A stretch of DNA of 64,000 nucleotides from a bacterium (lineage in GTDB: Bacteria > Patescibacteriota > Patescibacteriia > SBBB01): the NCBI GenBank assembly GCA_005239895.1, contig SBBB01000022.1, forward strand, positions 4,098 through 68,097, given 5' to 3'. Below are positions 3,824 through 51,615 of the stretch, piece after piece. Under the pieces are notes generated by a model. The model was not told the origin of the DNA and searched no databases. It saw only the letters and a program-made list of their open reading frames with translations. The stretch's first letter is position 1; every line of letters starts with the position of its first letter. The translations under genes and the position numbers were made by a program.

Positions 3824-4282
3824 TCATAATTTCAACATTCTCGCTATCAGTTGTAACCTTGAGGTTACTCCTGTCTTACCGCGAATATGGCGCATATGAT
3901 CTCTTATGGTTTCAACACTAATCTCCAACGCAGTTCCAATGTTTTTATCCGAGAAACCGTTTAGTAAGTACCACACAACATGTTTCTCGCGAGGAGTAAA
4001 TCGAACATCTTCTAATCTAGCTAAAACTAGATCTCTTAATGAAATGTTGAGTATTTGTATGCACTTTAACAAAGAAACAACCACCTCTTTCTTGTGCTCT
4101 TCGATCTGCTGCTTTAATCTAGGGCTCTGTTGCTGAAGTTTTGCAATCTTTTTTTCAAGCTCAGCAATCTGTTTCTTGACTATTATAATACCTGTAATGC
4201 GTTGCCGACTTCTATGATTTAGTCGACTTCTATGGTTTGCTTTTTTAATCAAGGTTGCTTTTTTAATCAAGGCTAATTTCAT
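3824..4282 (-). CDS. LuxR/GerE-family HTH transcriptional regulator (paralog 2, coiled-coil N-terminus)
   Basis: C-terminal HTH ...PREKHVVWYLLNGFSDKNIGTALEISVETIRDHMRHIRGKTGVTSRLQLIARML. Start chosen at MKLALIKK, which follows GGAGG (ATGAGGAGGAATATCATG). The ORF track extends to 4327. Confidence 0.6.
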   Translation of the reverse strand: MKLALIKKATLIKKANHRSRLNHRSRQRITGIIIVKKQIAELEKKIAKLQQQSPRLKQQIEEHKKEVVVSLLKCIQILNISLRDLVLARLEDVRFTPREKHVVWYLLNGFSDKNIGTALEISVETIRDHMRHIRGKTGVTSRLQLIARMLKL

Positions 4283-5396: not shown

Positions 5397-6578
5397 TCAT
5401 CTAACTCTAAGTGTGGAGCCTAAATACTCTAAACCTTTCGGTTTAATGATAACTGATTTGCTATTACTCTGTTCAATATGTCCAGCGCGAAACGCTACGA
5501 GCTTATTTGTAGTAGCGATTCTGATAACATGATCTACATCAGCTTCCGAAACATAGAGCGCAAAACCAGCGCCCATATTCCAGTTACCGTACGCCTCCCT
5601 ATCATCCACTGGACCATACCTCTGCATAACATCAAATATCAATTGTTGTTTTGGTAAACGATCGATAATGTAGGCAAATGGTTGTGTTGCTCGCATAAGC
5701 TTGCGCCATCCATGACCCGTAATATTTACCGCGTAATGAATGTCCACTCCGCTACTAATACAGTCTTCAACCAGCCCAACATAAATATGAGTTGGATCAA
5801 GCAATGTTTCTCCGTACGTTCGCCCGTCATCGAGTTTGGTCAAATAACCATCAGATAAAACACGAGGCGGAAACCAATTAGGTATTAAAAAGAAATTTAC
5901 CACTGCTTTCCAGAACCTGTGCTTTCTTTCACCAATCTCTCGCGCCATTGTGAGTCCATTAGCATGAATACCCGAACTCTCAATCATAACAATCGCATCA
6001 CCATGTTTAATGTTTGCTGGATTGATAACATTCTTCTTGGATTTAACTCTACCTACAGCAGCGCCGGCAAGTATAACTGTTTTTGGCATCACCATATCTT
6101 TCACTGTTTGAGTTTCGCCACAACCCCATGTGCAACGCGCTAAATTACAAGCGTTTTTAGTACCTCGACTGAAGTCTCTATAACGCTTCTCATCTGTAAA
6201 CCAACTTGATTTACCTGCTGCGACAAATATCATAAATACATGCGGAAATACGCCAGACGCAACCAGGTCATTTACAACCATAGCCACATTACACTGCGCG
6301 ATATGGTCGTAATAAGACTTGCCAGTGAGACGATACATAGCATCGGCTACTAGATTCTTTGTGCCCAATCCTTCTATAGTACCTCCCCAATAACAATCAT
6401 CCACTTCCATAAGATAAGCGCTCTCACCGCGACTCCACCTGGCTTCTTTAAAATCTCCATTACTGAAGTGATAGATGTTGTTTGAGGTGTCACAACCATC
6501 TATTTGCGATATTCTCTTGGTTAGATCCATCGCATCATAATTTACTCCAACTCCATCATAAGTCATTTTGCCTGCCAT
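5397..6578 (-). CDS. AIR synthase (PurM)-family protein
   Basis: PurM-like motifs GLGTKNLVA, VAMVVNDLVASG, GETLLDPTHIYV, NITGHG, WNMGAGFALYV; carries an N-terminal extension. Confidence 0.65.
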   Translation of the reverse strand: MAGKMTYDGVGVNYDAMDLTKRISQIDGCDTSNNIYHFSNGDFKEARWSRGESAYLMEVDDCYWGGTIEGLGTKNLVADAMYRLTGKSYYDHIAQCNVAMVVNDLVASGVFPHVFMIFVAAGKSSWFTDEKRYRDFSRGTKNACNLARCTWGCGETQTVKDMVMPKTVILAGAAVGRVKSKKNVINPANIKHGDAIVMIESSGIHANGLTMAREIGERKHRFWKAVVNFFLIPNWFPPRVLSDGYLTKLDDGRTYGETLLDPTHIYVGLVEDCISSGVDIHYAVNITGHGWRKLMRATQPFAYIIDRLPKQQLIFDVMQRYGPVDDREAYGNWNMGAGFALYVSEADVDHVIRIATTNKLVAFRAGHIEQSNSKSVIIKPKGLEYLGSTLRVR

Positions 6579-9579: not shown

Positions 9580-9617
9580 AATGTTTAGGAGTTGAACTCC
9601 TAAACATTGGTTTTTTA
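9580..9617 (+). terminator. Rho-independent terminator AATGTTTAGGAGTT-GAACTCCTAAACATT plus GGTTTTTT (member of a palindrome family)
   Basis: 14-bp perfect stem plus a T-run. A near-identical hairpin lies at 51464-51491. Confidence 0.65.
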
Positions 9618-9685
9618 AAAATAAATCCATATATTTCAACATTTATGAAGTATTATGACTTGAATTTAGTATAAAATACCAGTAC

Positions 9686-9817
9686 TTGACCCTGTTAGAA
9701 ATCGCGATCGCTACAAAATATACGCAAAGACCTGTATACTCAACAAAGGAGTCGTTATAAAGAAAATTTAACTCTGTTTAATACCTAGATCGCGACCTGT
9801 TTCTAACGGGGTTGACC
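9686..9817. mobile_element. MITE-like repeat, copy E1 (TTGACC-CTGTTAGAAATCGCGATCGC ... GATCGCGACCTGTTTCTAACGGGG-TTGACC)
   Basis: ~25-bp imperfect terminal inverted repeats with direct TTGAC at both ends; related copies at 20535, 35483, 51517 and 57059. Confidence 0.55.
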
Positions 9818-20406: not shown

Positions 20407-20534
20407 GTAATCTGAATTCCCATTGCTTTTCTTGTCATTTCCGCGACTTGCCCTTCAAAGCCTTGGCGTAGGAGGGTGGGGGAATCCAGGAGCGTGCACG
20501 CTTGCAATTACTGCTCCAACCAATGTTAATATTA

Positions 20535-20643
20535 AACCCCGTTAGAGATTATAAAAACCAGTGTTGTCTATTTTAGATATAATTATTATTACTAGCTTGT
20601 TTAATTATAAGTATCAAGTACATATCTCCAACAGGGATTGACA
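20535..20643. mobile_element. Degenerate MITE-like repeat, copy E5 (homologous to 57059-57172)
   Basis: AACCCCGTTAGAGATTAT ... AGTATCAAGTACATATCTCCAACAGGGATTGACA aligns with copy E4. Confidence 0.45.
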
Positions 20644-20662
20644 TTCGTCTAATAATCGCCTA

Positions 20663-20700
20663 ATAATTGCCTATCATGTTTGGTGATCGGATCACCAAAC
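20663..20700 (+). terminator. Hairpin ATGTTTGGTGATC-GGATCACCAAACAT plus TGGTTTTTT
   Basis: 13-bp perfect stem plus a T-run; a related palindrome lies at 58007-58036. Confidence 0.55.
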
Positions 20701-27926: not shown

Positions 27927-30900
27927 TTAAGAACGTTTAATTAATTTAATTTTTAAAACCGCATTGTTTACTAAGATTTCATCACCGAAATCCATTTCTT
28001 TACACGGCATTATTTTACTACAAAGAGTAGCATCTTTCAATTGTTTTGTATAGTCATTAATTACTTTTAACAAATCTTCGTCTTCCGTAAAAAAACTCAT
28101 AACAACTTTATCGTTTATAGTAAGAGATTTATTTTTGCGATAACTATTGATTTGACGAATTAATTCACGCAACAAACCCTCTTGTTTTAATTCAGGTGTT
28201 AAAGTTAAATCTATGGCCACAGTAAGTTTTTTATATTTTTTTGAAATCCAATTGCGTTGTGTCTTAGATTTATCAGCTCCCAGCAACGCAGTTTTGATAT
28301 TCAACTCGTCTTGAATTAACCCTAATAGTTCTTTGTTTAAACTGGATGATAATTTCAGCCCTTGAATTTTTAAACATGACAACGGCTGTCTGATTTTAAT
28401 TCCTGACTCTGAACGCAAGCTGTGCGCTATTTCTACAACTTCTAAAACACTATCCATATTACGATGCAAAGTATTATTAATAAACTTTGCATTATAAACT
28501 GGCCAATTTTCTAAATGCACAGATTCCAGAGTTGGATTTAAAGATTGATACAAAACCTCGGCTTTAAAAGGCATAAATGGAGCAATAACAACTGCTACTT
28601 GCGATAATATAAAGCCTAAAAATTCTGGATTTTGCTTAATTCTATCACGACTCCTTCTTAAATACCATGTAGATAATGAATTAATAAAATCGCCAATTAA
28701 ACGAGTCGCACCAACAATGTCGTGCTTATTTAAAGAGAGTGTCATTTGTTTAATGAGAGCATGCAATTTGCTTAAAATCCATTTATCTAAAATATGTTTT
28801 GGTTTTATAATCTTAACTTTTTTAGATTTAGCTGATTTTTTTACATTATACATTTCATAAAAACTATACACATTCTGCAAGGTAATTAAAATATTTCTTT
28901 GGCTATCAGATATATTTTTCTCGCTTAAATTAAAATCTTCACCAAATTGCACTGCCGTAAGTAAAAAGTAGCGCAAACTATCAACACCGTATTTCTGAAA
29001 CAAAACATCAATATCCGTATAATTTTTTAATTTTTTACTTAATTTTTTACCATCCTCAGCCAAAATCAAACCTGTAACCGATACGTTTTTATAAGCGGGT
29101 TTAAGTTTCCCAAGTTTAGCTCCGTGGGATAGTTTAACTTTAGGAATAGTTAAAGCTGAGGCTAAAACATGTAAAGTATAAAACCAGCCTCGGGTTTGAT
29201 CCAGGGCCTCAACAATAAAATCCGCTGGGAAAATTTTTTCAACCTTTTCTTTATTTTCAAAAGGATAATGCCAAGAAGCATAAGGCATAGAACCAGATTC
29301 AAACCAACAATCCAAAACATCCTCAACTCTACGCATCTCTCCGCCGCAAGAACACTTTAAAACTATATTGTCTATATAGGGCCTATGAAGATCGCGAATA
29401 TTATTATGAAATATATGCTTAGATCCCCAGGGTACTTTTAAACTTACGGCTTGATGTTCGGATTTCATATTAAAATATTTATAAATAGTGCGTATAACCG
29501 CGCCATGAGTCACGATTACAATAGTTTTGTTTTTATAATCCTGATTTAATTTTTCAAATAATTTTGTAACCCTATTTTCAACGTCTTGATAAGATTCGCC
29601 ATTTTCTGGTTTTACTAAATAAGGTTGATCAGAATTATTTCTTAAATCCGTTAACTTGGAATAAAGCTTACCAGTGAAAACCCCGGGATTAATATCGTTC
29701 AAATTAGGATCTATGACTAAAGGAATATTGTGATGGCTATTAATCAGTTTGGCTGTTTCTTGAGTACGTAAAAATTCAGACGCCATTATTAAATCAATGG
29801 TTTGATCTCTTAGTTCCCGGCTAATTTTTTTAGCTTCGGCCACTCCCTTAGCTGTTAAATGAATGGATTTACGAATGTTACAAAAGGTAGGTTCATTTAA
29901 AACCTTATTTACATTATGCTCAGCTTCCGTATGTCTAATAACTATAAATTTATTACCGCTAGGCGTGGCTAAAGCCAGCTCTTCAATACTTCCCATAATT
30001 TTTTTAGTATGACATTTAACGCAAGACCAAGCTGGAATTGGAACTCCCCAAAATCTAGTTCTAGAAATTGCCCAATCCCGAGCTGTATCTAACCATTTGC
30101 CGAACCTTCCATTTTTAATATGTTGAGGACTCCAGTTTATTTTTTTATTATTAGCTAACAGCGCCGCTTTAATTTTTACAACATTCACATACCAAGAGGT
30201 TAAGGGATAATAAATTAAATAATGGTCGCAACGCCAGCAAAATGGATAGGAATGATTAATCACCTCTTCTTTCCATAATAATTTTCTTTGATCTAAATCT
30301 TGAGTAATGGCTATATTAGCGTTTTTAACAAGTTCACCTTCGCCTGGCAAATTTAAACCTTTCATTAATCTACCCGCAGCATCCACAGTTATAAACACTG
30401 GAAGTTTATTTTGTTTGCTCAACGTCATATCATCTTCTCCGAAAGCTGGCGCGATATGCACCACACCCGAACCGTCCGCACTAGACACAAAATCTCCGTG
30501 ATACACTTGATGGATTATATTTTTAAAATTTTTAATGTCTTGGGCTTTAATTAAAGATGAAACATTATAAAAAGCATCATAAGATACACCAATCAATTCA
30601 ACCCCCTTCATTATTTTAATAATCTTATAATCACCTTCGACAAAAACACTCAAACGATCCTTAGTTATAATTAAATATTCGTCTTGTATTTTTATAAGAG
30701 CGTAAAACAAGTTTTTATTAATGGCTAAAGCGACATTACCAGGCAGGGTCCAGGGCGTAGTCGTCCAAACCAAAAAATAACTATTGTTTGGTAAATTATT
30801 ATCTAGTGGTTTTTGAATTTTAAATTTAACATAGATAGATTTGTCATCAACATCGCGATACCCTAAATTTACTTCAAAATTAGATAAACCCGTCTCGCAG

Positions 30901-31454
30901 CGAGGACAATAAGGACACACTCTATAATCTTGATAAATTAATTGATTAGTATGCAACATTTTAAAAACCCACCAAACAGATTCCATGTAAGAATTATCCA
31001 GGGTTGCGTATTGTTGGTGATAATCTGTCCAACGCCCAATTCTGGAAAACGTACCTTTCCAAACATCTAAATATTTAAATACAATATCTTTACAAGCCTG
31101 ATTAAACTTAGCAATGCTAGCTGTTTTATCGCCAGCTAAAGATTCAATAGAAGATTTATTTTTAATACCTAGTTCTTTTTCAACTAAATTTTCAATAGGC
31201 AAACCATGGCAATCCCAGCCTATCCTGCGCTCTACTTTATAACCCTTCATAGTCCAATAACGAGTCACAACATCTTTAATAATACTAATAAACACATGAC
31301 CTACGTGAGGTGGACCAGAAGCAAATGGAGGACCATCGTAAAAATTATAAAGTGGACATTTATCATTTTTGATTAAAGTCTTCTCAAAAATTTTATGTTC
31401 ATCCCAAAATTTTAATACATCCTCTTCTTTAGAAGAAGAATTTATTTGTAGCAT
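27927..31454 (-). CDS. ileS: isoleucyl-tRNA synthetase with an inserted histidine-phosphatase (PGM-like) domain
   Basis: HIGH (PHVGHV), WDCHGLP, KMSKS-like KLSKK and the anticodon-binding region are present. A ~190-aa insert (FIVIRHTEAEHN...VTHGAVIR) lies between the two Zn-knuckle Cys pairs. Confidence 0.85.
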   Translation of the reverse strand: MLQINSSSKEEDVLKFWDEHKIFEKTLIKNDKCPLYNFYDGPPFASGPPHVGHVFISIIKDVVTRYWTMKGYKVERRIGWDCHGLPIENLVEKELGIKNKSSIESLAGDKTASIAKFNQACKDIVFKYLDVWKGTFSRIGRWTDYHQQYATLDNSYMESVWWVFKMLHTNQLIYQDYRVCPYCPRCETGLSNFEVNLGYRDVDDKSIYVKFKIQKPLDNNLPNNSYFLVWTTTPWTLPGNVALAINKNLFYALIKIQDEYLIITKDRLSVFVEGDYKIIKIMKGVELIGVSYDAFYNVSSLIKAQDIKNFKNIIHQVYHGDFVSSADGSGVVHIAPAFGEDDMTLSKQNKLPVFITVDAAGRLMKGLNLPGEGELVKNANIAITQDLDQRKLLWKEEVINHSYPFCWRCDHYLIYYPLTSWYVNVVKIKAALLANNKKINWSPQHIKNGRFGKWLDTARDWAISRTRFWGVPIPAWSCVKCHTKKIMGSIEELALATPSGNKFIVIRHTEAEHNVNKVLNEPTFCNIRKSIHLTAKGVAEAKKISRELRDQTIDLIMASEFLRTQETAKLINSHHNIPLVIDPNLNDINPGVFTGKLYSKLTDLRNNSDQPYLVKPENGESYQDVENRVTKLFEKLNQDYKNKTIVIVTHGAVIRTIYKYFNMKSEHQAVSLKVPWGSKHIFHNNIRDLHRPYIDNIVLKCSCGGEMRRVEDVLDCWFESGSMPYASWHYPFENKEKVEKIFPADFIVEALDQTRGWFYTLHVLASALTIPKVKLSHGAKLGKLKPAYKNVSVTGLILAEDGKKLSKKLKNYTDIDVLFQKYGVDSLRYFLLTAVQFGEDFNLSEKNISDSQRNILITLQNVYSFYEMYNVKKSAKSKKVKIIKPKHILDKWILSKLHALIKQMTLSLNKHDIVGATRLIGDFINSLSTWYLRRSRDRIKQNPEFLGFILSQVAVVIAPFMPFKAEVLYQSLNPTLESVHLENWPVYNAKFINNTLHRNMDSVLEVVEIAHSLRSESGIKIRQPLSCLKIQGLKLSSSLNKELLGLIQDELNIKTALLGADKSKTQRNWISKKYKKLTVAIDLTLTPELKQEGLLRELIRQINSYRKNKSLTINDKVVMSFFTEDEDLLKVINDYTKQLKDATLCSKIMPCKEMDFGDEILVNNAVLKIKLIKRS

Positions 31455-33196: not shown

Positions 33197-35179
33197 CTAT
33201 TTTTCTGTCCCTACTGGCAAACGTTCTACAAAATTACCACGCCCATCTTGCTTAAAATAATATGAAGCAGCTTGTCTTAAATCAAATGGAAATTCTCGTA
33301 AATCTAAACTTGCCACATCTCCAACTTTTAATTTTTTATCTTTTGAGCCTAGTATTCCTGTTTCAGATAATTTAACAATCTTCCATTTATTACCCATTCT
33401 CTCCAAGAGAACCATTACAGGCTTAGCGCCAACTCTATTAAAAATAGTCTTTCCACCTCTAGCTTCATGTTCATATATACCCACTGACACTGCAAAGGCG
33501 TGAGGCTCTTGCAAGGCTTGAGGTTGTTTTTTATAATCTTCTATATGAACACGCTCCAAAAAAGCATCATAAAATTCTTTAAAAATTCTAGCGAGTTTGT
33601 CGGGTTCCTCGCCTGTAGATGCTTGACCTTTAATATATTGACTACGAACCAAAGTAGCAAAAAACTCTTTCTGCTTTATAATTCCCAATATTTCACGTAA
33701 TAATTCCATGGTTTTAGTGTCGCTAGCTTTTAATTTTTGACGAATTAATTCTATGTTCTTGGAACTTATTCTACTATTAATATTCTTTTCGTTCCTTTTT
33801 TCTACAGGTTTTAATAATTCAAATAAAGATAATAAAGTATTTATATCTGTATTATACTGACTCGATTCTTTTTGTCCTTCTCTCCAGACATCTGGGTTTA
33901 AAGTTGCTAATTTAAACTCATTCGGAGGAAAAAACGGAGAAAACTTATGTGGACTAAAAATCCTATCCGCTCCAGACGCATACACAATATGACTTCTTAA
34001 TCTTTTTCTTACACCTCCAAGATAATCTATAGTTTTACCATGTTCATCTCTTTTATTGCTCATAACAGCTAATTCAAGTAATTTGTCTTTAGTGAGCTTT
34101 AAATCTGAACAAATCCTTAAAATAGTATTAAATTTTTCATCATGAACAGCAGACACAGATTCAGAATGCTCTTTAAACCTAGCTACAATATCTTCTTCTT
34201 TCTTTTCTTTTCTAGTAGCTTCTTCGGCTAGTATAGTATCAATCCAAATAGAAAATTCCGGATCTTCTTTCCGCATAGCATCCATCCTTTCCTGTAATGG
34301 TTTAATAGCTTCAACATAAGCTGTTTCAATCCCAGCTTTAACATTTGTAATTTCCGCTTGCTTAGGTGTGTATAATGCTTCTATTTTTGGAAATATTTCC
34401 AAATTTTTCTTTTTTAACCCTTGCTTTATACGTTCATAACGCGAATTATAAGCGTGTTTATCATTTGGTGACCGTGATTGATTGTTATTTAAATCCCCTA
34501 GTAACTTAAATGCTGTTTTAAATGAGTCGCCTGTTGTGGCAGGAATAATATTTAAACTTACCAAAAGGTCATAGTCAACATTGTTTAATAGTTCTTTTTT
34601 AGATATTGCAATATCATGGGCTTGTTGCCAGACTTTTTCGTCTTGATTGGATTGTTCTAGAGCGCTATTTTTATTTTGCGCGGCTTTATCTAAATCTAAT
34701 TTTAGAATCTTGAACTCACGCTCCTTTTTTCTAAATCTTTCTAATTTTTTTTGTTCGGCTAATTGAGATGCTTTTAATTCATCTTGTTCTTGTAGAGTAG
34801 TGGCAATAAGATCTTCAAATGACATTTCTTCCTCTGCAGGCTTATCTGATGACGACTGCTCAGTCTCAACTCCATCCGTGTCTGTTGTATCTGTTAATGG
34901 TGCTGGTGTTTCTTCTGGAGTTGTTTCTGTTTGGTCATCTTCTGCTGCTGGTGTTGGCACTACATCTGCATTAGGAACATCGTCGCCCTCCACTGACAAA
35001 TCAGCTGGCGCTGTTTTTGTATCAGCGTCATCTGTTGGAGCTGGTTTTGAAGTTGATTTTTTTGGAGGCGTTTTTCTTGAAGCTTTTTTTGCCGGTGTTT
35101 TTGATTGTTCCAAATCAGGATTGTTGCCTTCTGGTATAGGTCCACCTTTTGCACCTTTTGGTAATTCTTTGTCAGGCAT
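33197..35179 (-). CDS. large hypothetical protein (660 aa) with an acidic, Pro/Thr/Glu-rich disordered N-terminus
   Basis: Long ORF with a low-complexity N-terminal 130 aa and no recognised catalytic motif. Confidence 0.5.
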   Translation of the reverse strand: MPDKELPKGAKGGPIPEGNNPDLEQSKTPAKKASRKTPPKKSTSKPAPTDDADTKTAPADLSVEGDDVPNADVVPTPAAEDDQTETTPEETPAPLTDTTDTDGVETEQSSSDKPAEEEMSFEDLIATTLQEQDELKASQLAEQKKLERFRKKEREFKILKLDLDKAAQNKNSALEQSNQDEKVWQQAHDIAISKKELLNNVDYDLLVSLNIIPATTGDSFKTAFKLLGDLNNNQSRSPNDKHAYNSRYERIKQGLKKKNLEIFPKIEALYTPKQAEITNVKAGIETAYVEAIKPLQERMDAMRKEDPEFSIWIDTILAEEATRKEKKEEDIVARFKEHSESVSAVHDEKFNTILRICSDLKLTKDKLLELAVMSNKRDEHGKTIDYLGGVRKRLRSHIVYASGADRIFSPHKFSPFFPPNEFKLATLNPDVWREGQKESSQYNTDINTLLSLFELLKPVEKRNEKNINSRISSKNIELIRQKLKASDTKTMELLREILGIIKQKEFFATLVRSQYIKGQASTGEEPDKLARIFKEFYDAFLERVHIEDYKKQPQALQEPHAFAVSVGIYEHEARGGKTIFNRVGAKPVMVLLERMGNKWKIVKLSETGILGSKDKKLKVGDVASLDLREFPFDLRQAASYYFKQDGRGNFVERLPVGTEK

Positions 35180-35321
35180 ATATAAAAAAATTTATTAAAA
35201 ACTTAACTTTATAATTTTTAACTTTTATAATCTATATTATACCATAATATTATGGCATGATCAAACATGTGCATAAGTCAAGCAGATTTAAGATTTTCAG
35301 TTTATGGTTTATGGCTTATGG

Positions 35322-35470
35322 ATTACGAGTTACGAGTTACGAGTTACGGATTACGAGTTACGATTTATGATTTTTGATTTAAAAACTTTACATTTGACAA
35401 TTGACATTTAACAACTGACAAAAATAAATTATTCTTGATTCTTGCCTAATGCCTAATGCCTAATGCCTAA
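35322..35470. repeat. Heptamer arrays: (GTTACGA)n, TTGACA-like x3, (CTAATGC)n
   Basis: Direct tandem 7-mers. Confidence 0.8.
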
Positions 35471-35482
35471 ATCTACGGCTGG

Positions 35483-35611
35483 GTTGACCCCGTTAGAAGC
35501 CGCGATCGCCACAAAAAAATATATTATATATTAAAAATAAACATAGTAATTTAATAAATACTTAACTCAACTTAATATTCAAATCGCGATCTGCTTCTAA
35601 CGGGGTTGACA
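35483..35611. mobile_element. MITE-like repeat, copy E2 (GTTGACCCCGTTAGAAGCCGCGATCGCC ... AAATCGCGATCTGCTTCTAACGGGGTTGACA)
   Basis: ~25-bp terminal inverted repeats with an AT-rich interior; same family as 9686-9817. Confidence 0.6.
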
Positions 35612-35634
35612 AATCCCTCAAACTAGTGTATAAT
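35606..35634 (+). promoter_or_regulatory. Perfect consensus promoter TTGACA-17-TATAAT created by the E2 terminus
   Basis: TTGACA at 35606-35611 (inside the repeat end) and TATAAT at 35629-35634. Confidence 0.55.
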
Positions 35635-35795
35635 GTATTCCAATAAATAATTGCATCCTGGTTCAAAATTGCTTTTATTAATAGATAGTGTATGGAATAA
35701 AGGTTTTTTTGAGAAAGGATGCAATCTAGGAGGACTGCCCTTTTTCAACCACTGTTGTATAACAGTGGAAAAATTAACTCAGGAGGAAAAGCCAA

Positions 35796-36025
35796 TGACT
35801 AAAATGACCAGCATCTCATTTTTCAACATGTCAAGCAGAGCGTATCACATGACGTTTAACAGGTGGCTCAGAGAGCAACATGCCCATGGTCAGGGCATGC
35901 CAACAACTAACACGCAAACACAGCAATTATCAACCCCAGTGAAAGAAACCAGGCAGTTCATTCTTTTCAAAAAAGATGGCACGGTTGTTTCACACGTCGC
36001 GCCAACCGTAAGCGCAACCGCTTAA
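35796..36025 (+). CDS. small hypothetical protein (76 aa) in a GC-rich patch
   Basis: AGGAGG lies 8 nt upstream of ATGACTAAAATG. Composition is GC-richer than the genome. The ORF track gives a longer 35651 start. Confidence 0.35.
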
Positions 36026-36039
36026 CCACCCCGCATCAA

Positions 36040-36112
36040 CAAAAAAGCTGCGCCTTACCGCCTAAGGCGCACGCAGACAAAATCAAAGGGTCAAAGCTAA
36101 CTACTTTGACCC
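36040..36112 (-). terminator. Two hairpins (GCGCCTTA-N5-TAAGGCGC and AAGGGTCAAAG-N8-CTTTGACCCTT) terminating ORF 36123-38648
   Basis: Perfect stems; the first is followed by a U-run on the minus strand. Confidence 0.5.
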
Positions 36113-36122
36113 TTCCTGCCCT

Positions 36123-38648
36123 TCACACTTTTTTATGCTGGTTATAAACCACAAAACCAGAAATAAATATCAAGGCTATTAAAGTTACATAAAAATATAT
36201 TTTATACTGATTATCATCATGACTATTATCGTTTGAAATGTTTAATTTAATTTCTTTTTCAATAGGATTATACTGAAGCTCATTTTTAATTTCTGAAGTA
36301 TTTCCAGTTTTAACACTCTGAATTTTTAGATCATTTAAATTTCGTGGCAATATTCGTGTTAAATTTTTATTTCTATCAATATATCCAGCTACAAAAATTG
36401 AATCGCCTTTTAAAATTTTGGGCATTTCTTTAAAATTATTTTTTTGAAAATATACTCTAACTTCTGAATCGTCATCTTCAACATACACGCCCCTACCATT
36501 AACGCGATTTACAAGACCCTTAATACTGACTAATTGTTTTTTGGGTTCTTTTTCAATATCCGAAATACTCACAGGCTTAGGTTCGGATGTTTTTGATTCT
36601 TCTAAAATATTTAATTTTTTCAAATCTTGCTGGCCATCGAAATTATTTAAAACAATATTTACAGGAGGGACTAAATTTTTATCAACTTCTTTATTAATCT
36701 CAGAATCAATAATAGAAACCAATAAAGTTTCAGTATCTGAACCACCATTTGTGTCTTTCATTAATAATTTCACATTATAATTACCACCTTTAAGATATTT
36801 GTGTTTTTCTACACTATTATTACTAATAGTTCCATCACCAAAATCTAAAAAATATTCTAAATCATCCCCATCAGGATCGTAAGAACCAGAACCATCAAAT
36901 AAAACACTGTGCGAATCTTTTAAATCTATATGTTTAGTCAAAATTGCTTTAGGCGATTGGTTTGCAAAAATTAAAACATTGTCTTGATTGGGAGTAATTC
37001 CCAAAGTCCACGATCTGGTGTTACTATTTATGCGACTATAAGATTGATTGGTTGACGCAACTTGAGAATACGCTAAAACATCTACTAAAACACGACCATT
37101 GGTATTTATTTCATTGGCGTACAGCTTTACTGTATCGCTTTTGTTATTTAATTGTAATTTGGTGATTTTAGAATAAACAACCAAAAATCCTTGAGACTTA
37201 ATAATAGTATCCTTAAAATCTAAATTATTAATTTTATATTCTCCCGTAGTGTTGGCAAGTATCCAACCATTTAAATTTATTTCATTAGAGCCTAAATTTT
37301 TTAACTCCACAAACTCTTGTTCACTATCTGAACCAAGAGGATTGGGCAAAACTTCGTTAATTACAACCTGATAATCAGTTGCACGAACTGAACGCGATTC
37401 ATTAATATTATTATCAACCAAAATAATATTTCCAGCATTAGGTGTTTTTGCGAAAGTCAATTTAAAATCTCTACGATTATGATTGGAATTTAATCCATCT
37501 TTTATTCTAGCCATAGATAAATCTTTGGGTTGCGCGTCCGCATTATCATTTATATTTCCATCGTCAAAATCACCATAAGCAACTTTATCTATAATGACTC
37601 CGTTTTTATTTTTTAAAACTATTGAATCTCCATCATTGTTTAAATAACCAGATTTAATATATATGGTTAAAAATTTATTATGACCACCGGGTTCTAAAAA
37701 GTCATATAATTGAATTTTTTCACCTGAACCGTCTTCTAAATATGACCCATTCAAACCAATTCTCTTGTCTGTAGTATTGTAAAGTTCTATCCACTCGTCC
37801 TGAGCATTGCTAGTATTGGCCATAAATTCATTAATAACAACATCTCCAACCAGGGGTTCAGCTGAAACAAGTTTGGCATTATTCTCATTAATCGAATCAG
37901 ATGGTTTGACAGTAGTTGAAGTCTCGTTTTTTGCAAGCGTTGAAGATTCTGAGGTTGTACTCGGTTTATTAAAACTTAAACCACCATCCAAGTCACTAGT
38001 ATTTTGCGGATTAGGTTTGTTTTGTATAAAAAAATCCAGGGAATTATTATCTGTGTCTTGAATATTATTACTAAAATATCTTTCTAAACTTTGGTGTTTT
38101 TCGGGATTGACAGCAGCTACTAGTTCTTTATCTTGCGCTGTACCAAAACCAATTTTATCAACTAAGGTTTTGCCATCATCGCTGTACAATAAAATAGTAT
38201 TATCTTCAGCCACAGATGCAGTTGAAACTGAATAAAAAATATCTGGACTTTTACCAGATTTATAATTTTTATGAGCAATCAATAAATAACCCCTGGATTT
38301 AATAACCAAAGCAGCTGGAAAACTAGTAACTAAATTAGATTGTGAACCCGTTGCTGTCTTTTTAGACAGTCTCCACTGATTTAAACTAATATCCGTTCCA
38401 GTTGGATTATACAATTCTATAAATTCGTCTAAAGTGGTTTCACCATTAATTTTAATTTCAGATATTACAACCTGGCTAGGATTAGCTATAGCAACTCTAT
38501 AAAACGAAAGACCCAAAACAATTAAAAATAAACCCTTTAAACCAATTGCCAAACCAATCGAACGAACATACAATTGCATACGCAGCTTTCCAGCTTTAAA
38601 AAAATTTTTAAAACCTTCTAGGTCACGATTGTTGCTTTTTAATAACAT
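36123..38648 (-). CDS. cell-surface protein with three lamin-tail (LTD) domains, a PKD domain and a C-terminal TM anchor
   Basis: LTD motifs VVISEIKINGE..EFIELYNPT, VVINEFMAN..EWIELYNTT and VVINEVLPNP..EFVELKNLG; PKD FDGSGSYDPDGDDLEYFLDFGDG. Confidence 0.65.
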   Translation of the reverse strand: MLLKSNNRDLEGFKNFFKAGKLRMQLYVRSIGLAIGLKGLFLIVLGLSFYRVAIANPSQVVISEIKINGETTLDEFIELYNPTGTDISLNQWRLSKKTATGSQSNLVTSFPAALVIKSRGYLLIAHKNYKSGKSPDIFYSVSTASVAEDNTILLYSDDGKTLVDKIGFGTAQDKELVAAVNPEKHQSLERYFSNNIQDTDNNSLDFFIQNKPNPQNTSDLDGGLSFNKPSTTSESSTLAKNETSTTVKPSDSINENNAKLVSAEPLVGDVVINEFMANTSNAQDEWIELYNTTDKRIGLNGSYLEDGSGEKIQLYDFLEPGGHNKFLTIYIKSGYLNNDGDSIVLKNKNGVIIDKVAYGDFDDGNINDNADAQPKDLSMARIKDGLNSNHNRRDFKLTFAKTPNAGNIILVDNNINESRSVRATDYQVVINEVLPNPLGSDSEQEFVELKNLGSNEINLNGWILANTTGEYKINNLDFKDTIIKSQGFLVVYSKITKLQLNNKSDTVKLYANEINTNGRVLVDVLAYSQVASTNQSYSRINSNTRSWTLGITPNQDNVLIFANQSPKAILTKHIDLKDSHSVLFDGSGSYDPDGDDLEYFLDFGDGTISNNSVEKHKYLKGGNYNVKLLMKDTNGGSDTETLLVSIIDSEINKEVDKNLVPPVNIVLNNFDGQQDLKKLNILEESKTSEPKPVSISDIEKEPKKQLVSIKGLVNRVNGRGVYVEDDDSEVRVYFQKNNFKEMPKILKGDSIFVAGYIDRNKNLTRILPRNLNDLKIQSVKTGNTSEIKNELQYNPIEKEIKLNISNDNSHDDNQYKIYFYVTLIALIFISGFVVYNQHKKV

Positions 38649-40306: not shown

Positions 40307-41194
40307 ATGCTCATCACTTTGAAGCCCTATCAAGTTAAATTATTCGTCTTGAGTGTCTTGCTATTACTCGTAGGGTTTATATGGCAGTTTACAAGCTCAT
40401 CAAATACTAAAAATTTAAAAGTGATTTTCTTGAATGTTGAACAAGGTGATGCCACCCTTATCCAAACTCCTAAAGAAAAAACTATTTTAATAGATGGCGG
40501 GCCAAATGCTGCGATCTTAGAAAAACTTGGGCAATATTTACCGTTTCATCAAAAGAAAATTGATTTAATAATCTTAACTCACCCCCATTCTGATCATGTA
40601 ACTGGCTTAATATCTGTGTTACAAAACTACCAAATAAATTTAATTTTAATGAATGGGGTTAATCATACCACGCCTGAATATATCACTTTCTTAAAATTAA
40701 TTAAAAATAAAAAAATCCCGGTTAATATTGTAGAAAACGCATCTTTTATTGATCTAGAAGACAATATTAGAATGGAAATTCTATATCCTGATCGTAATTT
40801 GGCTAATTTAGACGTAAAAGACTTGAACGATGGCTCTATAGTAACCTACTTAATTGCAAAAAATATTAAATTTTTATTTATGGGCGATGCTGGCTTTGGC
40901 GTGGAAAACAGACTGATGGCATCAAACCTACTTTTACAAACCAATGTATTAAAAATTGGGCACCACGGATCTAGAGAATCTTCGTCCTCTGAATTTTTAA
41001 ATTATGTTCGTCCTGAATTCGCCATTATTTCATCGGGAGCTAACAATCTATTCGGGCATCCCAGTAAAGAACTGTTAAAACGCTTAAACAATCAAAATAT
41101 AAAAACCTATCGTACTGACAAACATGGAGATATTATATTCACTACCAATGGTATAAATTTACAACTTCAACTTGGAAGTCCGACTTCCAAGTAA
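40307..41194 (+). CDS. ComEC/Rec2-related MBL-fold hydrolase (TM anchor plus beta-lactamase domain)
   Basis: HPHSDH...GDAG...GHHGS metal-binding pattern of the ComEC C-terminal domain. Confidence 0.6.
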   Translation: MLITLKPYQVKLFVLSVLLLLVGFIWQFTSSSNTKNLKVIFLNVEQGDATLIQTPKEKTILIDGGPNAAILEKLGQYLPFHQKKIDLIILTHPHSDHVTGLISVLQNYQINLILMNGVNHTTPEYITFLKLIKNKKIPVNIVENASFIDLEDNIRMEILYPDRNLANLDVKDLNDGSIVTYLIAKNIKFLFMGDAGFGVENRLMASNLLLQTNVLKIGHHGSRESSSSEFLNYVRPEFAIISSGANNLFGHPSKELLKRLNNQNIKTYRTDKHGDIIFTTNGINLQLQLGSPTSK

Positions 41195-42032: not shown

Positions 42033-42401
42033 TTAAAGCATTTTTAACTTGGTTTTGCAATCAATGCAAGAGCTGGAAACTGGTCGAGCTAAAAGTCTGT
42101 TAATATCAATTGGTTTATGGCAATATTTACAAACCCCATAAGACCCTGTTTCAATACTTTTCAAGGCATTGCAAACATCGTCATAAGATGATTTTAACAC
42201 TTGTTCTACAGACAGATTAATATCATAAGTTTCTATTTCCGTAACAGATTCGTTTTCAACGTTGCCCAAATCTGGGTACGCAACATTATAAGTATTAGCG
42301 CCCTGAGGGTCTTTTACTGTAATTCTATCTAATTCTGCTTGAATACTATCCCTTTTAGACACTAATTTTTGTTGAATGATAGCTAAAGTCTGTTTATCCA
42401 T
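42033..42401 (-). CDS. DksA/TraR-family C4 zinc-finger protein
   Basis: C-terminal CKYC..N...CIDC zinc finger with a coiled-coil N-terminus. Start taken at MDKQTL; the upstream Arg-rich extension is encoded by GC-rich, atypical codons. Confidence 0.65.
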   Translation of the reverse strand: MDKQTLAIIQQKLVSKRDSIQAELDRITVKDPQGANTYNVAYPDLGNVENESVTEIETYDINLSVEQVLKSSYDDVCNALKSIETGSYGVCKYCHKPIDINRLLARPVSSSCIDCKTKLKML

Positions 42402-43297
42402 ATAATTATAAATTCTACTTGTCCTCCGGCTTGTCCACCAAAGCCTTGCCTGCCCGTCTAAGTCTTGACGAAGTTGGGGCGTCGGTGGAAGCTCCGCTCG
42501 CCGTTGCGCTCGCCGTCGCATAGCTATGGCGTAGCACGGTAGCCGCTATGGCGAAGCACGGTTAGGAGCGAAGGAGGAAATCGTAAATTAATAATACTCT
42601 ATTATTCAAATTTAAGCAAGTCAAGCAACTCCTTAAATAATCAATAGGCCTTGGTTAAGCGCTGAGTCAATAAATCTATTGTTTCTTACTTTTTAAAAAA
42701 CTCCATAATTTTATATCGAAGCGTTAATCCATTTTTTGAATATTATAAAAGGCATACCGCCTAGTTCTTTTATAAAATAATAATAGCATTTATATGCTGT
42801 GAACAGGCTTATATGCCTTTGTATGTGCTCTTACAATTTCTAGCATGGGTTTTGCAATATGTGCAAAGCACATACTAAAATAAGAGACTTTTGTAATCCT
42901 CTCCATCCCGATTTTTTGACAGAGAAGAAATAACCATTTTTTATTCGCTTTAATTAACAAATAACAACCATAAGCAATATTAAAGCAAATAGTGTCTCAT
43001 CGGTAAGACACCGACCATAAGTCAAAAACAGTAAGATATAATAATAAATATCCTCCTTAAATAAGAATATTTGTTGTTTTTCTAATTAAAGAAAAATAAC
43101 ATACTTATATTATACACTAAAATAATAATATTGTCAATAGGTTTATCTAGTGGTTGTCCACAAGTTATACACAGTTTGCTTATTTTACACATAAATTTAA
43201 GTGTTGTATACTTTAAACGAAATTTATTACATTAAACAATTATTACAATAATAGTGAATTAAATGTTTAATTTACTTAAGAAAGGGGGTAAACAACA

Positions 43298-43510
43298 ATG
43301 TACGAATTAAATGAAGAGTGTCCATGTGGATCAGGACAAAAATATGGAGCATGCTGTGGAACTGAAGAATACTGCAATTGTGGTTCAGGTGAAACAGCTG
43401 GTAAATGTTGCTTTGGCACTAGTGAAGATGAAGACACTTTTAATAAAAACTCGGACGATTCCGATGATTATAATAATAGTAATTATAATGATTCAGATGA
43501 AAATTATTAA
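43298..43510 (+). CDS. small SEC-C-motif metal-binding protein with an acidic D/N/E-rich tail (70 aa)
   Basis: CPCGSGQKYGACCG is a SEC-C motif; a second degenerate copy CNCGSGETAGKCC follows. Strong SD AAAGGGGGT. Confidence 0.55.
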   Translation: MYELNEECPCGSGQKYGACCGTEEYCNCGSGETAGKCCFGTSEDEDTFNKNSDDSDDYNNSNYNDSDENY

Positions 43511-43868: not shown

Positions 43869-43898
43869 CAACTTGGAAGTCCGACTTCCAAGTAACTT
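43869..43898. repeat. 30-nt palindromic repeat copy 2 (between the convergent rpsT and holA)
   Basis: Identical to 41168-41197; 10-bp stem ACTTGGAAGT/ACTTCCAAGT. Confidence 0.7.
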
Positions 43899-47928: not shown

Positions 47929-48678
47929 ATTTTATTATCTTAATACTAAAAATTACTCTATAATTCAGCACTTTCTAAGTGTATCATATATTTCAATTAA
48001 AAGCAAGCCCCTGTTTGATACAACAAAATTCAAGTTTTTAACGCACTACTTTATTAATGATTTTATAGTTTGTGGCATAAAAATTTTACGATCTAATTCA
48101 CCCGCCAAAACTTACGGCACTTTATCGAATTATATTACTACGCATTGTAGCAACTAATAAATATAATGATTAGAAATTATAAGTTTAGGTGGGTAAACCG
48201 CAATAAAAAACTAAAACAGGGTAATATTATATTTATTACTGTTTACTTTAATTCGTTTAACCTAATTTTTAATAATTACAGAAACTTAACTTGAAATATG
48301 TTTTTTAATTGCCCTTTGGGTTAATACTATCCATCTATGAAATATAATTCTGATGGAATTTATTATTATAGTAAAACCACTTGTGGGTAAAAAATAAAAC
48401 ACAAAAGCCAGTGATTCTTTGGTTATAACAACGAGGCTTAACAAACCTTGGCATTCAATAATAAAAAATAAATATACTCCCTGTTTCAGTATTAAAGATG
48501 CACCTGTTCGCTATCAAGTTGCGAATATTTAAACAAAGCTAGCATACCCTCAACATTGCTAACGAACACGTAAATCATACCTCGATAAAAGCACAATGTC
48601 AAACAACTTTGCAAGACCACGTAGCGCTTGTAATTCTATTAATAACAAAGCTATAATAGGACTTAGGAATTAGCTTGT

Positions 48679-48845
48679 AGCTTGTAGCTGGTAGGGCGTA
48701 ATTGACAGTGTTTAATACCTAGTATTTATAGTTTAGGATTTAGGATTTAAGAATTCCTCCTTGAATTTTGAATTTTGAAAAAATTTATTCAACTAGGACT
48801 TGGAAGTTGAACCTCCAAGTCGTAAAAAGCTACCAGCTACAAGCT
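48679..48845. mobile_element. MITE-like element with perfect 16-bp terminal inverted repeats (AGCTTGTAGCTGGTAG ... CTACCAGCTACAAGCT), immediately upstream of murE
   Basis: Perfect inverted repeats 48679-48694 and 48830-48845. The interior contains a degenerate copy of the 30-nt palindrome (48798-48820). Confidence 0.5.
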
Positions 48846-48852
48846 AAAAGCT

Positions 48853-50091
48853 ATGTATTATATGTCTATTAAAAAACAAATTCGCAAATTTATCCCCGAG
48901 TGCGTTATTAATAATCTTTGGCATTTACCCAAAGCGGTTTTAATTGCTATACTTTTTAGCTTCCCCGGTCGTAAATTAACAGTTATTGGCGTTTGCGGTA
49001 CAAAAGGTAAAACTAGCACAGCTTATTTAATAACAAAAATCCTAAATTACGCTAAATATAAAACAGCCTTATTTTCAACTGCGGCTATATATTTGGATAA
49101 TAAAGAAACACCCAATCATTTAAAACTTACAACCGCGTCCGCATTGTTTTTACATAAATTTATTACTAAGGCTATTAAAACGAATACCAAATATTTAGTA
49201 CTAGAAGTGTCGTCGCACGCTTTAAAACAATATCGCACGTGGGGAATTCCAATCTCTTATGTAGTTCTAACTAATCTTATGTCCGATCACTTAGAATATC
49301 ATCACACCACAGCTGACTATCAAGACACCCATTTAGTTTTATTAAATAATGTCAATTTAAAACAGGCAATTTTAAATGGAGATGATCCAAATCTAGATCG
49401 GTATACAAAACTAAATTTTCCTAAAACTATATATCATAAAAATGATTCCTTGGATCAAAAATTACGAACGATTAATTTACCGCTTTTGGGTGAATTCAAT
49501 TTTTATAATGCTTTAGCTGCCAGCCACTTGGCTCTAAAATTAAATATTAATTTTGAAACCATTACAAAAGCCCTAGAAAACATCAATAATATTCCCGGGC
49601 GCTTAGAATTTGTTCAAAATCAACCTTTTAAAGTAATAGTTGATTATGCTCACTCAGTTGAATCTCTAAAAACTGTGCTACCAGTTGTGAAAAAAGTAGC
49701 CGAACGTAAAATTATTGTTGTTTTTGGAGCTTGCGGAGATCGCGATCCAAATCAACGACCTAAAATGGGAGAAGTTTTATCTGCATACGCAGATATTATT
49801 ATTATTACTAATGATGATCCTTTTACGGAAAACCCTGAAAATATAGCAAATATGGTTTTAAAAGGTATTAGCACTTCTAATAAATCTAACTTAGTGCAAG
49901 TTTTTAAAATTTTAGATCGTCAAGTCGCTATTGAAAAAGCCCTGTCTCTAGCTGAACCAAATGATATAGTTTTAATTTTGGGTAAAGGAGCTGAACAATG
50001 GCAGGTTTTTAAAGATAAAAAAATACCTTGGGATGACCGACAAATAACCAGGCAATTATTGCAAAAACTGAAAGTTGAAAGTAGTCAGTAA
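48853..50091 (+). CDS. murE: Mur ligase, MurE-like (UDP-N-acetylmuramoyl-tripeptide synthetase), short N-terminus
   Basis: GVCGTKGKTSTAYLI P-loop, LEVSSHAL..DHLEYH and DYAHSVESL (MurE-type motifs). Confidence 0.65.
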   Translation: MYYMSIKKQIRKFIPECVINNLWHLPKAVLIAILFSFPGRKLTVIGVCGTKGKTSTAYLITKILNYAKYKTALFSTAAIYLDNKETPNHLKLTTASALFLHKFITKAIKTNTKYLVLEVSSHALKQYRTWGIPISYVVLTNLMSDHLEYHHTTADYQDTHLVLLNNVNLKQAILNGDDPNLDRYTKLNFPKTIYHKNDSLDQKLRTINLPLLGEFNFYNALAASHLALKLNINFETITKALENINNIPGRLEFVQNQPFKVIVDYAHSVESLKTVLPVVKKVAERKIIVVFGACGDRDPNQRPKMGEVLSAYADIIIITNDDPFTENPENIANMVLKGISTSNKSNLVQVFKILDRQVAIEKALSLAEPNDIVLILGKGAEQWQVFKDKKIPWDDRQITRQLLQKLKVESSQ

Positions 50092-51306: not shown

Positions 51307-51463
51307 ATATTTTGGTAAATTAAATATATTAATAGTATATATTATACACTAATCTGGTAATGAAGACAATATTAATTGTCAATAAATCAGTATTTAGTTA
51401 TCACCAGGTTATATTACTTGATAGTTACTTAGTAGTTTCGCTACTAAATTGTTTCAAAAAAAC

Positions 51464-51491
51464 TAATGTTTAGGAGTTCAACTCCTAAACA
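51464..51491 (+). terminator. Hairpin TGTTTAGGAGTT-CAACTCCTAAACA (paralog of the 9580 terminator)
   Basis: 12-bp stem followed by GCCTTTTTA. Confidence 0.5.
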
Positions 51492-51516
51492 GCCTTTTTA
51501 ATCAAATGTAGTATTC

Positions 51517-51546
51517 AAATCTGGATTTACTTCTAACGGGGTTGAC
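51517..51546. mobile_element. Solo MITE terminus, copy E3 (TTCTAACGGGGTTGACAA)
   Basis: Matches the right ends of E1 and E2; as at 9580-9817 it lies downstream of the palindromic hairpin. Confidence 0.45.
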
Positions 51547-51615
51547 AATAACTACTATTTTATATACTATTTTTATACTATTTATATAGTATTTAAATAA
51601 CTAAAAACCTTTTCT

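Follow-up and report, generated by a model that had tools for sequence, protein, structure and literature searches.

Does a promoter that matches the sigma-70 consensus at every position, formed where a dispersed repeat meets non-conserved DNA, express a newly arrived small gene, or does it face a stretch of inert sequence? This question is raised by a locus in a Patescibacteria genome (GenBank assembly GCA_005239895.1), of which we analyzed a stretch of 64,000 nucleotides (nt), namely positions 4,098 to 68,097 of contig SBBB01000022.1 on the forward strand (hereafter the window, in whose own numbering coordinates are given). The window is AT-rich (GC 32.7%), and the locus lies in a 943-nt intergenic region, 35180–36122, bounded by two minus-strand genes. 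[quoted passage not shown] The reading we favor, with a probability slightly below one half (roughly 45%), is that the locus holds an orphan cassette for a small protein, recently acquired or very young, and that a hybrid promoter borne by the MITE-type repeat expresses it. The small genomes of Patescibacteria are poorly understood, with scant knowledge of how their promoters work, which mobile repeats they carry, and how they gain genes. The features of the locus are collected in Table 1.

The predicted promoter and its repeat family

The promoter is composed of two halves of different origin, as its −35 hexamer forms the right-hand end of an inverted-repeat element (copy A) and its −10 hexamer, TATAAT, belongs to the flanking DNA. 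An earlier note on this DNA had placed TTGACA exactly 17 nt from TATAAT and had traced the −35 box to a repeat end, and both statements were borne out, with agreement at 12 of 12 positions. From the position of the −10 box, transcription is predicted to start near 35641. The accompanying remark that most promoters here are weak held only in part: a scan of the whole window yielded just two perfect 12/12 sites, 35606–35634 (+) and 43137–43109 (−), but sites with at most one mismatch to the consensus were enriched four-fold (6 versus 1.47 expected).

The element itself is short, approximately 125–145 nt, and it overlaps no ORF other than a TTG frame of 34 codons, as befits a non-coding MITE. In copy A, the arms ACCCCGTTAGAAGC (35487–35500) and GCTTCTAACGGGGT (35593–35606) are 14 nt long and 100% complementary, with an AT-rich center between them; GCGATCGC adjoins the left arm, and TTGACA points outward at the right end. 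As RNA or single-stranded DNA, this copy folds into one long hairpin (z = −7.0). An nhmmer profile built from three copies and run on the window detected five copies in 64 kb, and the terminal inverted repeats were recognizable also in copies B and C. Because the interiors of the copies align as well as their arms, they constitute a family of dispersed repeats and not an array of operator sites. In copies A, B, and C, a TTGA adjoins each of the two arms; since it is identical in all of them and the DNA to its left is also conserved, TTGA may belong to the element itself instead of being a target-site duplication.

The geometry at the right end of the element lends the promoter more weight than a single consensus match would. 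This end is intact in four copies, where TCTAACGGGGTTGAC is invariant and is followed by an unconserved spacer and then, at 17–18 nt, by an invariant TA..AT in 4/4 cases (TATAAT, TAAAAT, TATGAT, and TACTAT). Given a background of 0.0275 per site for TAnnAT at this distance in the intergenic DNA of the window, the chance of finding it at all four is 5.7e-7. The other three intact copies face same-strand genes starting 18–140 nt downstream, encoding a metallo-beta-lactamase-fold protein (9957), a nucleotidyl transferase (51616), and SecG (57018–56800), and because these are housekeeping genes, the element appears to be a promoter module. The case for a promoter is therefore stronger than the earlier note could know, with initiation at 35606–35634 supported indirectly by the geometry at 4/4 element ends. 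In terms of sequence, the end of the element acts like a −35 box that can be carried into working-looking promoters. The −10 boxes may have come under selection once the element had inserted, may have been present at the sites beforehand, or may be a diverged part of the element, and five copies do not separate these possibilities. Their presence at the right distance in all intact copies points to selection or to a preference for certain sites, not to sporadic accidents. In the IMG/VR collection, the 15-mer TCTAACGGGGTTGAC had 18 matches, all of which lay in coding DNA with no extension of the similarity and can thus be attributed to chance.

Both parts of this arrangement have precedents. 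The Correia repeats and other bacterial MITEs carry sigma-70-like promoter sequences at their ends and can drive neighboring genes (PMC10969869). Like the element described here, the Correia repeat-enclosed elements of Neisseria, MITEAba12, QMITE1, and BrickBuilt are approximately 100–160 bp long and non-coding, with terminal inverted repeats, and Correia and other MITE copies are dispersed in intergenic DNA, often just upstream of genes, and form a long hairpin when transcribed. Unlike in promoter-bearing MITEs, however, only the −35 box lies within the conserved element here, the −10 box being in non-conserved flanking DNA. The present element also belongs to another phylum, shows no clear target-site duplication, has approximately 15 extra conserved bases at its left end, and has no cognate transposase in sight, while its promoter activity is a prediction. 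No sequence similarity to Correia or other MITEs was found in a comparison confined to the window. In the hybrid promoters of insertion sequences (IS), as described in PMC9330008, the inserted element contributes the −35 hexamer from its terminal inverted repeat, and the target DNA provides the −10 hexamer; such promoters, for example those of IS257, IS256, and IS1006/ISAba3, have exactly the geometry seen here. Unlike those insertion sequences, the present element is only ~140 nt long and has no transposase gene, it faces ordinary housekeeping genes and one orphan ORF rather than resistance genes, and none of its intact copies lacks a suitably spaced −10 box. If our interpretation is true, housekeeping genes in Patescibacteria receive their −35 boxes from a repeat of MITE type, and foreign DNA can be joined directly to such a promoter. 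Both would extend mechanisms already well known in Neisseria, Acinetobacter, and staphylococci, and the conceptual gain would be modest.

Several further repeats accompany the element family. The palindrome GCGATCGC occurs four times in the window (4529, 9531, 9704, and 35502) against 0.09 expected, and two of these occurrences adjoin the left arms of element copies. Terminator-like palindromic repeats fall into families, and those at gene ends include two families whose members are nearly identical, ATGTTTAGGAGTTSAACTCCTAAAC and ACTTGGAAGTCCGACTTCCAAGT, with sites at 9581–9607 and 51466–51492 and at 41170–41192, 43871–43893, and 48798–48820. Members of the ATGTTTAGGAGTTSAACTCCTAAAC family are found 35–75 nt upstream of two element copies, giving the order terminator, element, promoter. 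The degenerate copy at 20535–20636 (−) is situated between convergent genes and adjoins a GC-rich patch of approximately 100 nt (region 20430–20646), with an AGGAGG at 20470 and an 11-nt tandem repeat at 20645–20673.

The GC-rich patch and its reading frame

What lies downstream of the promoter differs sharply in composition from its surroundings. The GC fraction of the ORF is 0.46, with 150-nt windows peaking at 0.53, against 0.33 for the window as a whole. At third codon positions (GC3), it reaches 0.52 versus 0.25 ± 0.04 in host genes, and the synonymous-codon score of the ORF is −0.18 versus 0.21 ± 0.07, approximately six standard deviations away. The composition shifts abruptly at ~35726, and the foreign-looking stretch covers ~315 nt. 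These GC3 and codon-use values mark the patch as DNA that is either foreign or very young, its composition not yet shifted to that of the host, which fits the proposal of recently acquired DNA in the earlier note. No donor was found in our searches. The patch is not a copy of another GC-rich patch or repeat of the window, as blastn-short returned only 11–13-mers. The 8–9-mers that flank it, CTGCCCTT and TGCCCTTCA, were not enriched and were rejected as a target duplication. Its arrangement is also not an old syntenic feature, because the only recognizable ortholog of the convergent lamin-tail (LTD) gene, on contig L029 of the nearest relative (46% identity), is followed by 5S and 23S rRNA genes in a dissimilar region. 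An origin as a relic of an rRNA operon was rejected, since Smith-Waterman scores against this region equaled those of shuffled controls and blastn found nothing. This relative is too distant for dating the acquisition.

The locus is not an assembly artefact. In a second assembly of sequencing run SRR6943130, two Logan contigs (L010 and L001) are base-identical to the window across 35150–36122 and break only within the TTACGAG array, and because these contigs are independent, the junctions of the patch are real. Vector or Escherichia coli contamination was rejected on the same grounds, and blastn against plasmids and E. coli genomes was also empty.

Several features suggest that the patch may be translated. 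The 76-codon frame has a start codon, a ribosome-binding site, and no interruption, and the sequence of the ORF and its strong AGGAGG were exactly as quoted in the earlier note, apart from the start codon, which lies at 35795 and not at the implied 35796. Almost none of the ~40 genes of the window has a Shine-Dalgarno sequence, making the AGGAGG of this ORF exceptional. Purine frequencies at the three codon positions (R1/R2/R3) are 0.64/0.42/0.53 in the frame of the ORF, near those of host genes (0.63/0.47/0.47), and the leader has no such periodicity. The predicted product is basic (isoelectric point 10.5) and has no transmembrane segment.

These elements can be assembled into a putative chain of events. 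A MITE-type element of ~140 nt would place an outward TTGACA 17 nt from a TATAAT in the adjoining DNA, and the resulting hybrid sigma-70 promoter would fire rightwards, away from the divergent 660-aa gene. The transcript, from ~35641, would open with the 76-nt AT-rich hairpin, followed by the unpaired AGGAGG 8 nt before the ATG, and the 76-codon ORF within the ~315-nt foreign stretch would yield a small, basic, soluble protein. At the far end, the hairpins of the LTD gene would probably curb the convergent transcript as well, as a barrier effective in both directions. These hairpins are the two GC-rich structures that had been noted as following the ORF; they are present as placed, but they are not the terminators of the ORF. 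Their T-runs lie on the minus strand only (36048–36041 and 36084–36075), which identifies them as tandem intrinsic terminators of the convergent LTD gene. As in known tandem or bidirectional terminators between convergent genes, two GC-rich stem-loops with U-tracts follow the LTD stop, with A-tracts opposite.

Weighing the candidate gene against other explanations

A considerable body of evidence weighs against a functional gene. Homologs of the ORF were absent from a word-indexed search of 5.8 billion protein clusters, and an exhaustive HMMER search of 1.84 billion representatives returned three matches, all of them translated tandem repeats. No relative was confirmed at the tblastn or peptide-pattern level in JGI metagenomes and IMG/VR, and blastn against phage, plasmid, and E. 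coli DNA gave no match. Pfam, PHROGs, PADLOC, and PDB contained no match (best PHROG E = 0.17), and NCBIfam produced only a 15-bit match versus a cut-off of 246 bits. Five start variants of the ORF were all missing from a 15-billion-protein collection, and none of them is annotated by NCBI or by Logan, although the same collection holds the 72-aa SecG of the host from both sources; on the Logan contig, no gene is called anywhere in the GC-rich patch. The frame shows neither homologs or conservation elsewhere nor a gene-finder prediction, and its coding statistics, purine periodicity apart, are unlike those of the host. Its length is not significant, as a 76-codon ATG ORF arises in 6% of dinucleotide shuffles (open frame, p ~0.15), and its GC content rises from the first through the second to the third codon position, which is unusual for real genes. 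AlphaFold single-sequence models were poor, with predicted local distance difference test (pLDDT) values of 53.5 and 49.7, too low for meaningful fold matches. On the plus strand, unlike in bidirectional terminators, both hairpins lack a proper U-tract after them, which leaves the ORF transcript without a canonical terminator and its termination uncertain. Moreover, if the element makes a promoter wherever it inserts, the promoter alone is no proof of useful downstream DNA.

The suggestion in the earlier note of a real, strongly expressed protein therefore found no backing in homology, gene calling, structure prediction, or ORF length, and the proposed toxin or phage product fared no better. 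A type I toxin was rejected because there is no hydrophobic segment (maximum Kyte-Doolittle value over 19 residues, 0.68), and a phage or defense gene because PHROGs offered nothing better than the above E value and PADLOC nothing at all. An integron cassette with an attC site was likewise rejected: its 5′ arm reads GTTAGAA and its 3′ arm TTCTAAC, which reverses the polarity of attC, where RYYYAAC is expected on the 5′ side and GTTRRRY on the 3′ side, and no integron integrase was found among the neighboring genes scanned. Size and charge alone would suggest a small protein that binds nucleic acids or acts as a regulator, which is no more than a guess. Like laterally acquired small ORFan genes, the ORF is short, without homologs, and atypical in composition, with its own ribosome-binding site and a variable intergenic position; unlike them, it has no donor and no mobile-element genes alongside, and it is a candidate gene.

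The most serious competitor, although we consider it unlikely, is that the patch is an inert relic, a leftover foreign fragment facing a promoter that is a by-product of the element, with an ORF that gives no useful protein. The orphan status of the ORF in every search, its neglect by gene finders, its non-significant length, its odd codon-position GC, and the poor structure models would all be explained in this way, and intergenic DNA full of repeats is evidently tolerated in this genome, taking up 13.8 kb in the 64-kb window. The presence of 5S and 23S rRNA genes downstream of the LTD gene in the nearest relative instead of the patch is also compatible with such a relic. However, an AGGAGG ideally spaced before the first ATG of the longest frame would be a coincidence of ~1e-3 (estimated from base frequencies), in a genome where such sequences are hardly used, and the purine periodicity falls in the correct frame. 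The lack of decay in the frame is uninformative either way, because the unameliorated GC3 implies that the DNA is young.

Somewhat less probable still is a function at the RNA level, in which the non-coding transcript would serve as a small RNA or run, as a convergent antisense RNA, into the LTD gene at its 3′ end and modulate that gene. The absence of a canonical plus-strand terminator makes read-through into the LTD gene plausible, and stable RNAs in AT-rich genomes are typically GC-rich. The leader (35641–35800, z = −3.6) and the whole of 35640–36125 (z = −5.1) fold better than shuffles, and the other perfect promoter of the window (43137–43109) also precedes ~700 nt that lack a convincing ORF and fold with z = −9.5. 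The significant parts of 35640–36125, however, are the leader hairpin and the terminators only; the core of the patch (35726–36048) has no unusual degree of structure on either strand (plus, z = −1.1; minus, z = −1.8), which argues against RNA structure as the reason for its high GC. A known stable RNA (RNase P, tmRNA, 6S, signal recognition particle RNA, or riboswitch) was rejected, since Rfam gave only chance-level miRNA and sRNA matches at the gathering score and at E values up to 10 and ARAGORN found no tmRNA. In addition, the AGGAGG-ATG-ORF arrangement would be a coincidence under this explanation. A leader attenuator was also unsupported, as the inner stem is weak (−5.2 kcal/mol) and, together with the seven U that follow, no better than shuffles; the leader hairpin has no repeat elsewhere in the window.

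A longer protein is very improbable: a 124-codon frame from TTG 35651, ~10 nt past the predicted transcript start, would turn the two AGGAGG motifs into Gly-Gly and Glu-Glu codons, and even though the 48 upstream codons are open in the same frame (shuffle p = 0.0185), their GC declines from the first to the third codon position as in host genes, and host genes usually start after AT-rich DNA with no Shine-Dalgarno sequence, we ranked it low because the extension has no purine periodicity and consists largely of the 76-nt hairpin, the composition breaks at ~35726, and the 124-aa form has no family match, a pLDDT of 49.7, and no gene-finder call.

The recently acquired or very young small-protein cassette thus stays ahead of these alternatives. 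A bolder version, in which a mobile promoter module that provides −35 boxes for several genes captured a very young gene, lateral or de novo, whose small basic product belongs to an entirely new family, is in our estimation doubtful. If it were true, the locus would be a snapshot of an ultra-small symbiotic genome domesticating foreign DNA; the orphan ORF matters only if its product is demonstrated.

Neighboring genes, arrays, and further observations

Table 1. Features of the locus and copies of the inverted-repeat element, in window coordinates
Feature	Position	Strand	Details
Sigma-70-type promoter (predicted)	35606–35634	+	TTGACA 35606–35611, 17 nt, TATAAT 35629–35634; 12/12
MITE-like inverted-repeat element, copy A	35470–35611	+	nhmmer E = 2e-40
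AT-rich leader hairpin, 76 nt	35650–35725	+	30-nt arms, 77% complementary; near predicted transcript start
First AGGAGG	35728–35733	+	no start codon after it
Small perfect hairpin	35749–35768	+	on predicted transcript, between both AGGAGG motifs
AGGAGG Shine-Dalgarno sequence	35781–35786	+	8 nt upstream of ATG; predicted unpaired
76-codon orphan ORF (candidate)	35795–36025	+	ATG 35795, stop TAA 36023–36025
Intrinsic terminator of LTD gene, second of tandem pair	36049–36071	-	9-bp GC-rich stem, then TTTTTT
Intrinsic terminator of LTD gene, first of pair	36085–36115	-	13-bp stem, then GATTTTGT; directly after LTD stop 36123
841-aa lamin-tail (LTD)/PKD gene	36123–38648	-	convergent with 76-codon ORF
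660-aa ORFan gene	33197–35179	-	divergent from candidate promoter
Promoter-like site of 660-aa ORFan gene	35236–35264	-	TTGATC, 17 nt, TATAAT; TG before −10; 10/12
Period-7 tandem arrays	35300–35470	.	TRF; GTTTATG x3.7, TTACGAG x6.4–8.4, TTGACA-like 7/14-mers x3–4.6, TGCCTAA x4
Element copy	9676–9817	+	nhmmer
Element copy	57184–57061	-	nhmmer
Element copy, right-hand fragment	51438–51547	+	nhmmer
Element copy, degenerate	20636–20535	-	nhmmer

The two genes bounding the locus differ in their conservation. The 660-aa protein has no Pfam, NCBIfam, or PADLOC match, and its only homolog is itself; the LTD/PKD protein has hundreds of homologs, those with a named source coming from Patescibacteria, Magasanikbacteria, Nomurabacteria, or Uhrbacteria. 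The window is thus assigned by its proteins to the Patescibacteria (candidate phyla radiation). With regard to synteny in relatives, the 660-aa neighbor has no relative and the isoleucyl-tRNA synthetase (IleRS) pointed to no close genome, its closest match among the 185,579 species-representative genomes scanned being ~45% identical. No second strain of the host was found for comparison.

The heptamer arrays upstream of the promoter are present as the earlier note described, but they are a window-wide feature of intergenic DNA and not special to this locus. Arrays of period 7, and also of 8 and 12 nt, are common, with examples at 84, 4862, 7352, 18706, 25556, 32586, 41257, 48671–48853, and 50117, and the one at 48827–48853 reaches right up to a start codon. 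The breaks of the Logan contigs inside an array would fit length variation in the population. On contig L029 of the nearest relative, a (TTGACAT)n array and a palindrome at 5637–5700 lie within the span of the 23S rRNA model, which looks like an insertion in the 23S rRNA gene.

The second perfect site, 43137–43109 (−), reads TTGACAATATTATTATTTTAGTGTATAAT and has TAGTGTATAAT in common with the promoter studied here. The stretch downstream of it ends in a 63%-GC patch at 42410–42580, just upstream of a DksA/TraR-type zinc-finger gene (42401–42033), and has no Rfam match (42400–43137, minus strand); it is a candidate large structured leader or new RNA. A near-consensus promoter at 48602–48574 (−), with 11/12 matches, lies ~640 nt upstream of the gene 47928–47581 (−), which was identified by its sequence as that of ribosomal protein S15; the intervening DNA contains no ORF and no Rfam match at E values up to 1.

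Three protein-coding regions elsewhere in the window also deserve mention. An AIR-synthase-related gene, 5397–6578 (−), is the clear exception to the scarcity of Shine-Dalgarno sequences, with AAAGGAGGAAAATCA before its ATG; it has the highest GC (0.42) among the tabulated genes of the window and may be another acquired gene. A 70-aa ORF at 43298–43510 (+) is preceded by AAGGGGG and has an acidic, Asn/Asp-rich tail; its start, MYELNEECPCGSGQKYGACCG, resembles the SEC-C zinc-binding motif. Finally, the 1175-aa IleRS encoded at 27927–31454 (−) carries a histidine-phosphatase domain (His_Phos_1) at residues 504–673, inserted inside the region matched by the catalytic tRNA-synt_1 domain, an unusual fusion.

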